DNA of 48,428 bases from the IMG/VR virus record IMGVR_UViG_3300045988_145381. One strand, 5' to 3'. The number at the start of each line of letters is the position of its first letter. Positions within the stretch are counted from its first letter, which is position 1. Shown here in pieces: positions 1 through 48,428 of this stretch. Source of the DNA: a virus. Lineage: Duplodnaviria > Heunggongvirae > Uroviricota > Caudoviricetes. Made by a program: the position numbers and the translations under genes. Under the pieces are notes generated by a model, which was given only the letters and a program-made list of their open reading frames with translations, was not told the DNA's origin and ran no database searches.

Positions 1-128
1 GTTGACACCCTCGCATAACCATATTGCATACTTTCTAAACCGCGATTGTTGCTAAAAGCGGGAAAAAATATCGTTCAGACGACACAGAGGCAATTCGCAA
101 AAACCTCGGTTTACAGGAAACGGTAAAT
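1..128. repeat. 128-bp sequence identical to 48301..48428 (circular contig overlap)
   Basis: First 128 nt of the window recur exactly at the 3' end; the boundary coincides with the invertase crossover site. Confidence 0.9.
103..127. promoter_or_regulatory. DNA-invertase crossover site, left inverted repeat (gix/cix-like)
   Basis: acctcggtttacaggaaacggtaaa is the perfect reverse complement of 3155..3179; it lies about 75 bp upstream of the invertase start (wrap-around). Confidence 0.75.
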
Positions 129-29315: not shown

Positions 29316-29391
29316 TGGTGGCCCCTACCGGATTTGAACCGATGACCGTGCGATTATGAGTCGCCTGCTCTAACCACTGAGCTAAGGGGCC
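29316..29391 (-). tRNA. tRNA, anticodon CAU (Ile2-like or Met)
   Basis: 76-nt cloverleaf GGCCCCTTAGCTCAGTGGTTAGAGCAGGCGACTCATAATCGC...GGTTCAAATCCGGTAGGGGCCACCA with encoded CCA; 5' half matches E. coli ileX-type tRNA as recalled from memory. Confidence 0.85.
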
Positions 29392-39967: not shown

Positions 39968-39990
39968 AACCATAAAAAAGGCCCCCGAAG
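39968..39990 (-). terminator. rho-independent terminator (minus-strand orientation)
   Basis: ggcccccgaaggggcc hairpin with a T-run on the minus strand. Confidence 0.5.
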
Positions 39991-40001
39991 GGGCCTAATC
40001 G

Positions 40002-40124
40002 CTACTTGCTGCTAATGTTTATCGTCACATTTAGAGCGTTATCAGTAATCTTCCAACCCTCCCCATGTGGCGTAAACAAAGCTCCAGTAACAACGATAAA
40101 AATACACATACAGTATTTTTTCAT
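40002..40124 (-). CDS. small hydrophobic peptide (40 aa, MKKYCMCIFIVVTGALFTPHGEGW...)
   Basis: Read directly from sequence; Shine-Dalgarno-like aaggg upstream; terminator 39968..39990 immediately downstream. Confidence 0.25.
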   Translation of the reverse strand: MKKYCMCIFIVVTGALFTPHGEGWKITDNALNVTINISSK

Positions 40125-40520
40125 TGTATGGCCCTTACAGGCCGTTTCACGGCATCCCCACCGACGAAAACAACGCGAGAGCAAGCACGGCTGCTTGTGC
40201 TTGCATGTACGGCAACGGAGAATCCTCCCCTAAAGTCGGTGCCCGGGTGCGAATCGGCGGGAAGGTCCACAGGTATTTTACGATTATTTTAAGATTAGTA
40301 ATAGGAAAGAAATTAAACGAAAAAACTCGTTTATTTTCACAAAATCAGTAACCTACCCACAATCTGTGAGTTTGCAGGCACAACAAGAACCACAATTTTT
40401 TGAAGCATAATAGTGGACTATTATTACCTTTTGGGTAAAATTAACTTGCTGCTTGTGCTTGCGTGGTTGTTTATACAACAACGTAATGCTGAAAGGACCG
40501 CGAATCCGATCAGCACGAAA

Positions 40521-40549: not shown

Positions 40550-40690
40550 TTTCTGCCTACCAATAAACCCACGCTATGTGGTTGTCTCTGTTAAAATCCC
40601 GCCGTATTGACATGAATGCGCCATTGGTGGACACTTTCCGAGCCGTAGCAAAATCTACGGTCGGGATTGGCGTCCCGATTGCACAATGGC

Positions 40691-40716
40691 GCATACCGCG
40701 TTAGCGGTTTTTTTAT
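40691..40716 (+). terminator. intrinsic terminator-like hairpin in the ant leader region
   Basis: accgc-gtta-gcggt stem-loop followed by 7 T. Confidence 0.45.
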
Positions 40717-40876
40717 GCGTAAAGCACTGCTACACCCAAATTATGGTGGGGCGTGCGGGGGCGGAGAAATCCGCGCCGGGTTTGTCATTGTGCCGGTTAC
40801 GCCAACCCTGTACGTCTCACCACCATATTGATTGGCGTCATTGGTGGTGATAGTTCCTTTAATCGGAGATATCACA

Positions 40877-44502: not shown

Positions 44503-44802
44503 TCAGATGTTAAACGCTATTCGTTTTCCTGTGGGAAGCTCAACATCCAGGCTTAATTTGCCTCCCATAGCTTCAACGTAACGCTTTAATGTCGCCAGCT
44601 TTAAATCATTTCCGCGCTGCTCCAGCTTTGTTACTGCTGGCTGGCTTATACCCATCGCCTCAGCAACCTGTTTTTGTGATAACTGGAGTTCTTCACGCAT
44701 CATCTGCAAGCCGACCTCAAGAATCATCTCATCTGCCATTTCTTTAATTCGCGCCTGGCTTTCCGGTGAACGGCTGGCAATCGCCTCATCTAATGTTCTC
44801 AT
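44503..44802 (-). CDS. higA: HigA-like HTH antitoxin
   Basis: 99-aa ORF with XRE-type HTH (...LSQKQVAEAMGISQPAVTKLEQ...), overlapping the stop of the upstream toxin-like gene. Confidence 0.65.
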   Translation of the reverse strand: MRTLDEAIASRSPESQARIKEMADEMILEVGLQMMREELQLSQKQVAEAMGISQPAVTKLEQRGNDLKLATLKRYVEAMGGKLSLDVELPTGKRIAFNI

Positions 44803-45155
44803 TACTTGCTCTCCAGTGTGTTCAGATGTGCTGCAAACTCATCCTCAGCTATACGCACCAGTTTTTCATAAAACCGCTTATCGTTACTTTTGTCTCCTGC
44901 ACAAAGAACGATGGCCCGGCGAATCGGATCGAACGCATAAAAGGCTCTTATCGGACGGCCAGAAAACTGAACGCGAAGCTCTTTCATATTTTTGTACCGA
45001 GAACCTTTTACGGTATCGGCATATGGCCTGGGTAACTCAGGTCCGTAAACCTGTAGCTTTTTCAAATCAGCCAAAACCTTTTCCTGAAGAGCGTCTTCTT
45101 GCTCATTTAGCCAGTCGTCAAATCGCTGGCTAAAAAGTACCGTCCACATGCTCAA
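44802..45155 (-). CDS. higB: HigB/RelE-family toxin-like protein
   Basis: 117-aa ORF upstream of and coupled to the HTH antitoxin (toxin-first order); two TATAAC-N6-GTTATA-type palindromes at 45159..45204. Confidence 0.6.
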   Translation of the reverse strand: MSMWTVLFSQRFDDWLNEQEDALQEKVLADLKKLQVYGPELPRPYADTVKGSRYKNMKELRVQFSGRPIRAFYAFDPIRRAIVLCAGDKSNDKRFYEKLVRIAEDEFAAHLNTLESK

Positions 45156-45980: not shown

Positions 45981-46379
45981 TTATTATATCTACGATGGTA
46001 GGAAATCTTTTCCTATGTGGCAATAGAAATTTACTACATTGCGTATAAGACAAGTTTTCTATGTCTAATAGGAAATGATGTTTCTTACGTTTTATCGCGT
46101 TCTGATGGCTACTGTGTGCGTATTTATCGACGTTTATTGATAAGGCTCGCCCCTTCCTCCTGCAAAGCCCGGCCGTAGGCCTTATTTCGGCCTTATATAA
46201 ATTGATTTTGTATAGTTCGAAACGCGCCGTTTCGAAAAGGATGATCAGGCTGCTCCATGCCTCCGGCAAGTGCCGGAGGAGGTATATTTGAGCGTAGCGA
46301 CTCGAACCGGCGCGAGCTTTAGCTCGCTGCAAGGGCGAACATATTCACAGGCAAAGCCTGCGTAAGTTAAATAAAGAAA

Positions 46380-46611
46380 GTTTTAATAAAAGAAAGTGAT
46401 TTTGCATTTATTTGTTTAGTGCATCTATTATAAAAAACCATTTGCATATACATATCAAAACTGTGGATAACTTTATTAGCCGATGCCTGTAAAGGCGATA
46501 TTTTTGCTGTGTTCAGGTTTAGAGAAAATTAATTTAGATTGTTTTTTGAACAGATATTTTATTGCGACGTAGATAATCCTCCGGTAAAACCGGATTCATC
46601 ATTCAGGTGGG
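46380..46611. promoter_or_regulatory. candidate replication origin (AT-rich region with DnaA box) downstream of repA
   Basis: tgtggataa (reverse complement of TTATCCACA) at 46462..46470 within an AT-rich stretch about 140 bp beyond the repA stop. Confidence 0.45.
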
Positions 46612-47451
46612 TTAATGTTGGAGTGATTTCCAGGTCTTTCTTAGCCTGTTATAACGCTGCTCAACGAGGGAGCGTAAATATGCAAGGTCAGCACCAGGAT
46701 ACATGCCATCAGCAAATTCCTGGCTAACCTCTCTAGTGATTTGATGGCGAAGTTCGGCCTCTCCCTTTTCCTGAACAAGACGCGCAGCTCTCTCCGCTGC
46801 TTTCTGTTTTGCCTTTATCTCTCTGGCCGTCTTCCTCTGACGCCATACATTCTCCATCTGCTCCTGAATAACAATACGCTTATAATCAGCCTCCGTTATC
46901 GCTTTTTTAAGCCGTTCGCTATTCTTCGCATTGAAGTAATTAAGTTTCTGGCTAACCGCACGTCTCCATGCTTGTTCAGTAATACCAACTGTTTCCAGCA
47001 GTTGATCACGAATCTCGATTTTCGCTGGCCAATACTGTTTATTCACCCGATCCCAGCGACGTTCATAATCAATAAAACCTAACTCTTTCAGTTGCGACAA
47101 CGCCCTTGTACAGCGCGTTATAGACTTGTTCCCAGCTTCGGATACGGTAGACAGGCCGCAAAAATCAGCCAACGCCTCAGCACTGGCCAGAACCCGCTTA
47201 GAAATGATGTTTACATGGTGCAAAATCGCAGCAATCACAGCATTAATCGCCCGACGACGATGCTCGTTTATCCGGCGTTTCCGCTCTGACGGTTGATTAA
47301 CGTAGAACGCAACCTCACACGTAAGATCACGACCATTAATGCGCTGTAAAGCATCAGATAACACCAGCGGCAGCTTGTGCGTATGGTGCTTTGGAGGCTG
47401 GAACTCCGGCGACAAATTACAAACGTAAGCTGAACGTAGAGACGGCATTGG
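46612..47451 (-). CDS. repA: IncFII-type replication initiator RepA
   Basis: ORF 46612..47604 trimmed to MDRPMPSLRS...; strong resemblance to R100/R1 RepA1 as recalled (...KSITRCTRALSQLKELGFIDYE...). Confidence 0.75.
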   Translation of the reverse strand, partial: PMPSLRSAYVCNLSPEFQPPKHHTHKLPLVLSDALQRINGRDLTCEVAFYVNQPSERKRRINEHRRRAINAVIAAILHHVNIISKRVLASAEALADFCGLSTVSEAGNKSITRCTRALSQLKELGFIDYERRWDRVNKQYWPAKIEIRDQLLETVGITEQAWRRAVSQKLNYFNAKNSERLKKAITEADYKRIVIQEQMENVWRQRKTAREIKAKQKAAERAARLVQEKGEAELRHQITREVSQEFADGMYPGADLAYLRSLVEQRYNRLRKTWKSLQH

Positions 47452-47494
47452 TCTATCCATATGTTCGCTCTTGCGTCCACGGAAAACCAACGTA

Positions 47495-47576
47495 TAATGG
47501 GAGTTGTCGAGGCGCCCATGGTTAGTTGTTGGTTTTCCTTTCCGTGGATGTCGCAAGAAGCCCGCAGATTTATCTG
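47495..47576 (+). ncRNA. candidate antisense RNA to the repA leader (CopA-like)
   Basis: Plus-strand TTGCGT-16bp-TATAAT promoter at 47461..47488, long imperfect stem, terminator hairpin gcccgcagatttatctgcgggc plus ttttt at 47548..47576. Confidence 0.45.
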
Positions 47577-47775
47577 CGGGCTTTTTGTTTCCATATCTGG
47601 TCACTTTTCAACCAGACACCCACAATCATAACCACGTTACGTGGTTTTAAGAGAACTCTACCACAACACTTTCGGTCATGCACGAAGTCTCTCACTGATC
47701 GAACGATAATCCACCAGTAAAAGGATCTAAATTGGATCTCGTTTTGCGAGCATCATACTACTGGCCTAACTCCAG

Positions 47776-48330
47776 TCAATGATTCCCAGCCGGAAACCTG
47801 CGGTAAAGCGTGGATAAGGTAACATCGAAGATAATCGCTATCCGCTTACGTGAAACACCATTCGCAATAAGCCTTCCGATCTGTTCCCATTGCTCTGGTG
47901 CCAATTTTGAGCGGCGTCCTCCTATCCTGCCGTTAGCCCTTGCCACCGCCAATCCTGCACGCGTTCTTTCAATCATATTTTCCCGCTCCATCTCTGCGAC
48001 TGCACTCAGCATCGTGTAGGCAAAGCGGCCAATTGAAGTGCTAATTTTTATCCCTTCCGTAATCGAAATAAACTCAATGTTGTTTGATAAAAAATAGTTT
48101 AGTAAATCAACAAGATGAATCAGAGAACGCCCCATTCGGTCCAGCTTCCAGACAATAACCGTATCGCCCGGCCGTAACACCTTCAGTAGCTTATCAAGTC
48201 CTGGTCGTTTTGATTTAGCACCGGATATTTTATCTTCAAAAATCCGGTCACATCCTGAACTCCTGAGCGCCTCCAATTGTAATTCCAAATTCTGGTCAAA
48301 AGTTGACACCCTCGCATAACCATATTGCAT
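47776..48330 (-). CDS. serine DNA invertase (Hin/Gin/Cin/Pin family)
   Basis: 184-aa ORF MQYGYARVSTFDQNLELQLEAL...DRMGRS... with catalytic Ser motif and C-terminal HTH; start wraps to window position 30; crossover site upstream. Confidence 0.9.
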   Translation of the reverse strand: MQYGYARVSTFDQNLELQLEALRSSGCDRIFEDKISGAKSKRPGLDKLLKVLRPGDTVIVWKLDRMGRSLIHLVDLLNYFLSNNIEFISITEGIKISTSIGRFAYTMLSAVAEMERENMIERTRAGLAVARANGRIGGRRSKLAPEQWEQIGRLIANGVSRKRIAIIFDVTLSTLYRRFPAGNH

Positions 48331-48428
48331 ACTTTCTAAACCGCGATTGTTGCTAAAAGCGGGAAAAAATATCGTTCAGACGACACAGAGGCAATTCGCA
48401 AAAACCTCGGTTTACAGGAAACGGTAAA

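Follow-up and report, generated by a model that had tools for sequence, protein, structure and literature searches.

A putative countertranscript and a tentative translational switch at the repA leader of an IncFII-family phage-plasmid

We have focussed on a stretch of viral DNA of 48,428 nucleotides (the window), and within it on repA and the leader that precedes this gene. The window is matched at 95-100% identity by 63 non-mobilizable plasmids of ~46-52 kb, the hosts of which were E. coli, E. albertii, E. fergusonii and Klebsiella, and also by three Yersinia myophages (vB_YpM_39, 41, 44). On the strength of these matches, and of the P1/P7-type immunity RNAs (C4 and isrK), ryfA and a tRNA gene (Table 1), we identify the window by sequence comparison as a 48-kb E. 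coli phage-plasmid. Phage-plasmids of this ~48-kb kind are frequent in E. coli, where the reference strain ATCC 25922 carries one, and are also found in Salmonella, in Klebsiella and as free Yersinia phages. The window also carries the genes of a RelE/ParE-family toxin and of a HTH antitoxin (44503-45155, minus strand, annotated from the relative L001), probably an addiction module.

The minus-strand ORF at 46612-47604 encodes an IncFII-family RepA (PF02387, 151 bits for a cutoff of 22.9), and its score against NCBIfam NF040977, RepA_IncFII_LM (232 bits, cutoff 70), makes it a member of the IncFII/LM RepA. The characterised members of this Rep family are under antisense RNA (countertranscript) control (PMC8053102, PMC10724649), and antisense control in an IncFII-family replicon is in itself expected. 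The mechanical ORF opens at GTG 47604 because a 5-nt duplication in the window shifts the frame of the extension. Both profiles begin only ~57-62 residues inside this ORF, the closest homologues that are not identical (81-85% identity) comprise 277 aa, and in alignment A1 their ATG coincides with ATG 47448 of the window, from which the protein would start as MPSLRS. Furthermore, the N-terminal extension upstream of this ATG is open only in some lineages and hinges on a 5-nt indel. For these reasons RepA most likely starts at ATG 47448, or possibly at a second in-frame ATG, 47460, which is specific to the window's lineage, and we have rejected the extension to GTG 47604 as an annotation artefact. 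The same applies to the ATG of the relatives annotated as a 325-aa RefSeq CDS or as the 326-aa form (protein cluster P0001, 525 member sequences), the extension of which (window 47449-47604, minus strand) is likewise not conserved and traverses the antisense control region. This corrects a widespread start-site annotation. About 140 bp downstream of the repA stop there is a perfect DnaA box, TGTGGATAA (the reverse complement of TTATCCACA), in a setting of AT-rich DNA, and this region is likely the oriR; we take the position of the box relative to repA to resemble its placement in the IncFII oriR.

Table 1. Features of the window discussed in the text (positions are those of the whole stretch; + and - are the two strands).
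Feature	Position	Strand	Remarks
tRNA gene	29319-29391		Rfam match above gathering threshold
ryfA	39974-40270		Rfam match above gathering threshold
isrK	40642-40714		Rfam match above gathering threshold
C4 antisense RNA (P1/P7-type immunity)	40739-40827		Rfam match above gathering threshold
Perfect DnaA box	46462-46470	+	Read from sequence
repA (IncFII/LM family)	46612-47448	-	277 aa; start taken at the conserved ATG 47448
Alternative "anti-RBS" hairpin (predicted)	47446-47492	-	CGUUGGUUUUCCGUG (47492-47478) : UAUGGA-U-AGACCAAUG (47461-47446)
repA mRNA leader	47449-47745	-	~297 nt, highly structured (-111.6 kcal/mol, z = -6.7)
Long imperfect repA mRNA hairpin	47470-47557	-	Base CUUGCG/CGCAAG; 5' arm 47548-47528; 3' arm 47491-47476
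Antisense promoter (putative)	47471-47498	+	-35 TTGCGT (47471-47476), 16-bp spacer, -10 TATAAT (47493-47498)
Apical mini-hairpin	47497-47519	-	AUGGG/CCCAU with 13-nt loop CGCCUCGACAACU
Countertranscript (predicted)	47503-47590	+	~85-88 nt; 5' end placed to ~3 nt
Countertranscript 5' single-stranded tail	~47503-47510	+	GUUGUCGA
Countertranscript stem-loop I	47511-47553	+	
Hypervariable segment	47520-47543	+	Loop of antisense stem-loop I; internal loop of mRNA hairpin
Countertranscript terminator	47554-47587	+	Core stem 47560-47581, loop UUUA, then U-tract to 47590
Leader palindrome/hairpin AACCACG-UAA-CGUGGUU	47630-47646	-	Stem invariant, loop varies among relatives
repA promoter (predicted)	47752-47779	-	TTGACT (47779-47774), 16 bp, TATGAT (47757-47752); 10/12 consensus matches

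Transcription of repA is predicted to start near 47745, from a promoter both hexamers of which are kept in the clade A relatives described below (alignment A1). Just downstream of this start there is a direct repeat, AGATCC-N5-AGATCC (47724-47738, minus strand), containing two GATC (Dam) sites and kept in Salmonella and Klebsiella relatives, which could be an operator or a methylation-sensitive element. The palindrome aaccacg-tta-cgtggtt that the first-pass annotation had seen further upstream of repA is present in the leader, and a second conserved hairpin (47596-47616, minus strand), upstream of the antisense target, seems by eye to keep its pairing despite sequence changes. The same annotation had seen no CopB-like ORF, and this was borne out, as no CopB gene was found upstream of repA: the leader contains short ORFs without a consistent stop, and the upstream gene codes for a serine recombinase. 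This recombinase, of the Hin/Pin/Gin DNA-invertase type (47776-48330, minus strand), lies directly upstream of the repA promoter and adjoins tail-fibre and tail-fibre-assembly genes in the relatives, an arrangement suggestive of an invertible host-range switch.

On the strand opposite the leader, the hexamers of the plus-strand TTGCGT-16bp-TATAAT promoter described by the first-pass annotation were confirmed at the positions given in Table 1. The pattern TTGNNN-16..18-TATAAT has a single occurrence per strand (plus and minus) in the whole 48-kb window. The -35 box agrees with TTGACA at only three of six positions, and a simple consensus scan listed neither this promoter nor its terminator. From the arrangement of the two we infer that an untranslated RNA is transcribed against the leader, composed of a single-stranded 5' tail, a stem-loop (I) and a terminator. 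An 87-nt plus-strand RNA folds at -40.6 kcal/mol (z = -6.4). The classical terminator that had been placed at 47548..47576 does exist, but those coordinates are ~12 nt too low, the actual element extending over 47560-47590, with a G+C-rich stem (47560-47569/47572-47581) followed by TTTTTGTTT; RNAfold gives it a 16-bp stem, a 4-nt loop and a U-tail.

A long imperfect inverted repeat had been counted as part of the same countertranscript signature. The repeat is real, with arms at 47476-47491 (tccacggaaaaccaac) and 47528-47548 (gttggttttcctttccgtgga), but the hairpin that it would form belongs to the repA mRNA. The left arm sits within the antisense promoter, between the -35 and -10 boxes, so a transcript initiated there would lack it and include the right arm alone. 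The repA mRNA is the only transcript with both arms, and the long hairpin is thus an mRNA structure. Its 3' arm and base overlap the spacer and the -35 box of the antisense promoter, and a 121-nt stretch folds at z = -9.6. At the apex, the core of the loop of the mini-hairpin, GCCUCGACAACUCC, is complementary to the 5' tail of the countertranscript.

Homologous loci (numbered with the prefix L) were gathered via the plasmid matches, via contigs encoding RepA relatives and by a motif scan of viral and metagenome contigs; in the genome contig collection no RepA relatives were found, and the motif scan of the same collection gave chance matches only, in unrelated taxa. The elements of the module are kept in more than 20 homologous loci belonging to two clades. 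In clade A (RepA 81-100% identical) repA follows the module immediately, and in clade B (RepA ~60% identical) the module is followed by an ORF of 158-162 aa, the stop of which overlaps the start of repA. In 20 homologues the TATAAT does not vary, always lies on the strand opposite repA and is accompanied by TTGCGT at a spacing of 16 bp (clade A) or by TTGCAT at a spacing of 18 bp (clade B), the spacer sequences being unrelated. The A-tract and terminator hairpin are also kept in both clades, with the U-tract on the plus (antisense) side. The stem sequence of this hairpin differs between clades with compensation (pairs 10-33, 17-26 and 18-25), and its loop reads UUUA (clade A) or UUCG (clade B). 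The countertranscripts predicted in the 20 homologues are 79-91 nt long and share a common three-part architecture in both clades, i.e., an invariant unpaired 5' tail, a variable stem-loop I and a tetraloop terminator.

A hairpin of ~90 nt is present in all the loci, and its arms are unrelated between the clades yet always complementary. Its apex bears a near-invariant block, GCCUCGACAACUCC(C/G)AUUAUA, with single substitutions in three clade A lineages (in the core in L002, L004 and L006), and the closing pair of the mini-hairpin (103-121) changes from G-C to C-G between clades. In clade A alone, 96.5% of the cells of the mRNA hairpin are paired, versus 34-49% in slid controls, and four pairs show double changes. 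For both clades together the figures, which rest on an alignment fitted to a covariance model of the structure, are 95.2% versus 34-47%; changes on both sides affect 16 pairs and 100 cells, and none of 500 shuffles did as well. A count of G:U versus A:C cells, meant to tell which strand folds, was uninformative (11 versus 13).

Conservation of this kind could also arise if there were no regulatory RNA at all, the hairpins being cis-acting parts of the repA mRNA or DNA (an attenuator, a stability element or a protein-binding site) and the TATAAT being conserved within the loop motif for some other reason. The weak antisense -35 box would fit this, the invariant 20-nt block at the apex could be a protein or RNA recognition site, and there are sub-threshold Rfam matches to hairpin-plus-terminator shapes resembling Thr_leader. 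However, the U-tract is found on the plus strand only, the minus-strand tails (UUCUUGCG or CUCUGCGG) being poor for termination, and a -35-like hexamer is kept at a legal spacing in both clades even though the spacer differs. There is neither a Thr/Ile-rich leader peptide nor a plus-strand gene upstream, and the characterised members of the Rep family use a countertranscript (PMC8053102). We consider this explanation quite improbable. The sub-threshold matches themselves (Thr_leader, 34.6 bits for a threshold of 55; rli61; CsrC) were rejected as reflecting a generic hairpin-plus-terminator shape. The relatives share the promoter and the intrinsic terminator on the strand facing the rep leader, as expected of copy control by a cis-encoded antisense RNA. 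By comparison, antisense control at the repA leader is well supported, and a countertranscript that represses repA very probably exists.

As to how such an RNA might act, folding of the free mRNA predicts that the long hairpin forms and that the SD-like UGGA and the AUG remain largely unpaired. When the bases covered by the antisense RNA are masked, the best fold of all clade A sequences is a hairpin between the 3' arm and the SD/AUG region (the anti-RBS hairpin of Table 1), and the mean unpaired probability between -14 and +4 goes from 0.5-0.6 (0.24 in L010) to 0.08-0.39; L010 is an exception, its OFF fold being the best already in the absence of antisense RNA. In the window this pairing comprises 15 bp with one bulge, covering the UGGA and both candidate AUGs, with a duplex energy of -15.8 kcal/mol (p ~0.007 versus natural 23-mers). 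Across five lineages with differing RBS spacers, the 3'-arm:RBS duplexes reach -13 to -16 kcal/mol (p = 0.005-0.023 versus natural 23-mers). One U:A to A:U exchange preserves the pairing, and in each lineage the RBS-proximal element resembles the 5' arm of the hairpin (for example, AAGAAUUCAAC versus AAGAAUCCAAC in L010). The significance in clade A is only moderate, as longer flanks give p of 0.015-0.07, and in clade B the helix is not significant (p 0.02-0.48). A test of cognate versus non-cognate 3'-arm:RBS duplexes separated the clades but not the clade A lineages. An UGACC:GGUCA compensation in L034 and L038 was discarded, being only apparent and absent from L066. Transcription attenuation was also rejected, because no U-tract follows the alternative hairpin.

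The model that we propose is the following. The sigma-70 promoter would drive an ~85-nt countertranscript ending at the intrinsic terminator. In the ON state, the last 90 nucleotides of the repA leader would form the long hairpin, and the weak SD (UGGA) and AUG would stay accessible, allowing synthesis of RepA. The countertranscript, identical in sequence to the 3' arm of this hairpin, would nucleate with its invariant 5' tail (GUUGUCGA...) on the invariant apical loop (GCCUCGACAAC), and the pairing would then spread across the 5' arm and the complement of the terminator. In the OFF state the displaced 3' arm would pair with the 5'-arm-like SD/AUG region, blocking the initiation of RepA and hence replication. 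Since the countertranscript would be made in proportion to plasmid dosage, the outcome would be a negative feedback on copy number, with the variable stem-loop I setting the specificity of incompatibility. We find this model as a whole, countertranscript plus refolding of the repA mRNA, reasonably probable. Its refolding step, in which the displaced 3' arm hides the repA RBS, is put forward tentatively, because the support weakens with longer flanks, clade B is not significant and one compensation is not universal.

Alternatively, the countertranscript might repress repA with no refolding, through an ~85-bp duplex that is cut by RNase III, destabilises the mRNA or hinders the ribosome, the complementarity between the 3' arm and the RBS being incidental. 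The evidence from promoter, terminator and architecture fits this equally well, and the moderate support of the anti-RBS helix, weak in clade B, would be in its favour. On the other hand, ~55 nt separate the promoter-proximal end of the duplex from AUG 47448 downstream of it, too great a distance for direct occlusion, and with the target masked the 3'-arm:RBS helix emerges as the best fold in all clade A lineages in spite of their different RBS spacers. We regard repression of this sort as unlikely and prefer the refolding model.

The control mechanisms of the classical IncFII family have been summarised (PMC8053102, PMC10724649), and the module was compared with the RNAs involved. The Rfam models CopA (RF00042), PK-repBA (RF01089) and PK-repZ (RF01087) gave no match at E<=10 within 46300-48428, nor at E<=0.01 in the homologues L002, L006 and L007. 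Two positive controls behaved as they should: a true IncFII replicon with annotated tap and regulatory RepA protein (L045) scored 99.9 bits with CopA, and a metagenomic relative (L005) scored 49.3 bits with PK-repBA (threshold 45), 28.8 bits with PK-repZ and 34.3 bits with CopA. The control region of L005 (L005:1045-1215) is a classical IncB/IncI-type set, with a long hairpin with an UUGGCG loop, an antisense promoter TTGAAA-16-TATAAT, CGCC near the RBS and a leader ORF of 15 codons with a stop overlapping the repA start (GUGA). As its RepA is 63% identical to that of the window, closely related Rep genes evidently carry different control cassettes.

The first-pass annotation had read the locus as a CopA/CopT-like countertranscript. 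What holds of this is the countertranscript, for a cis-encoded RNA opposite the repA leader is still the best reading of a promoter, a terminator orientation and an architecture kept in two clades. There are also real likenesses to the CopA/CopT-Tap-CopB system of IncFII plasmids (R1, NR1), namely the Rep superfamily, a countertranscript of ~85-90 nt that comprises two stem-loops and is terminated intrinsically, the negative and dosage-dependent control of RepA translation (predicted in our case) and an origin with a DnaA box downstream of repA. However, in Rfam membership as in anatomy the module is not, on its sequence, a member of the CopA family. CopA has a 6-nt recognition loop where the terminator stem-loop here bears a tetraloop; the UUGGCG/CGCCAA loop motif is absent from the window's module, as is CopB; we propose that a 5' tail contacts an apical loop and that the effect comes about by a refolding of the mRNA.

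A Tap-like leader peptide is also missing, since three frames of ten clade A leaders contained no ORF conserved in start, SD and stop, and one leader ORF of 23-41 aa, partly conserved in sequence, was judged non-coding. Yet a classical arrangement deserves consideration, in which an ORF starting at AUG 47519 in the apical loop (MGASTTPIIRW...) would be a leader peptide coupled to RepA, its translation opening the downstream structure and the countertranscript covering its start. Most clade A sequences keep the AUG and the first ~20 codons, and the ORF crosses the 3' arm and the repA start, ending 28 nt into repA in L004, L013 and L044. But it lacks an SD, its start codon is CUG in L010 and L012 and absent in clade B, its stop position varies from 32 aa to more than 100 aa, and the conservation of its amino acids is explained by the conserved nucleotides of promoter and loop. 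A tap-like peptide thus seems very improbable, and the refolding model remains the one that we pursue.

The RNAI/Inc RNA systems of IncB, IncI-alpha, IncK and IncL/M, with a leader peptide (RepB/RepY) and an activator pseudoknot, also resemble the module in some respects. The window RepA belongs to RepA_IncFII_LM, CopB is absent, the antisense -10 (AUUAUA in the mRNA sense) lies just upstream of the regulated RBS, and a sequence near this RBS is complementary to part of an upstream structure. In contrast to L005, however, the window has no UUGGCG loop, no leader ORF with a stop overlapping the rep start, no CGCC by the RBS and no PK-repBA match. Besides, its RBS-proximal element resembles the target arm and not the antisense RNA, and the long-range pairing is therefore predicted to be inhibitory rather than activating.

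The logic of the proposed switch has parallels elsewhere. In pT181, pIP501 and pAMbeta1, the antisense RNA binds the 5' part of the leader and so frees a segment that forms an inhibitory hairpin, a transcription terminator. A freed segment would likewise form an alternative inhibitory hairpin here, but these plasmids have Rep families and hosts unrelated to those of the window, and, with a hairpin that has no U-tract and covers SD and AUG, the output would in our case be translational. In hok/sok and in the RNA-IN/RNA-OUT of IS10, a single-stranded 5' end nucleates on the hairpin loop of the partner, the same tail-on-loop geometry that we propose, although their biology is unrelated. Finally, IncI2 plasmids (pHNSHP45; antisense RNA/RepR/PcnR) are IncFII-related and have a leader antisense RNA and no pseudoknot of the IncI1 type (PMC8053102). 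They differ in having a 19-aa leader peptide coupled to repA and a ProQ/FinO-family protein; beside the window's repA locus we saw neither a conserved leader peptide of this kind nor an adjacent ProQ/FinO-type gene.

Judged from the sequences, then, the layout is neither of the CopA/Tap/CopB nor of the RNAI/leader-peptide/pseudoknot type, and it is common to two clades of phage-plasmid replicons. We found no published description of this replicon or of its copy-number control in the literature. It may represent an undescribed class of switch in the IncFII/LM Rep family, carried by a widespread group of phage-plasmids of E. coli and Salmonella, in which the antisense RNA is a decoy of one arm of an mRNA hairpin and an "anti-anti-RBS" structure flips to an "anti-RBS" one, with no leader peptide, pseudoknot or CopB, with an invariant tail/loop nucleation site, and with a slippage-prone specificity loop generating new incompatibility alleles. 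If true, a fourth regulatory layout would be added to the well-studied IncFII, IncI/B and IncL/M family, a translational switch could replace the arrangement of leader peptide plus pseudoknot, and the stem-loop I allele would be a sequence marker predicting incompatibility among these phage-plasmids.

Stem-loop I is indeed very variable. At least eight alleles were distinguished in E. coli plasmids that are otherwise nearly identical, and almost all the differences fall within the hypervariable segment, a short A/C-rich tract in which the alleles differ by indels of GGAAA and CAA-type units. In two relatives aligned across the whole leader (L001 and L036), 6/7 and 10/12 of the leader differences are inside it. 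The types include that of the window, with a tandem duplication of GGAAA (47539-47543), an AATTAA type and an CAACAACAAT type. They could be incompatibility alleles or simple slippage, in which case the variable loop would be merely an unconstrained, slippage-prone sequence.

The ORF that separates the module from repA in clade B (L007:716-1204, L015:728-1204, L008:112-588) shares 4 nt with the start of repA. Its product is paralogous to the N-terminal half of RepA (31% identity, E = 2e-17), with weak winged-helix matches in L007 only, and the start of the ORF, AUGGA(A/U)AAC, aligns with the AUGGA that in clade A precedes repA. This points to an origin of clade A by deletion or of clade B by duplication.
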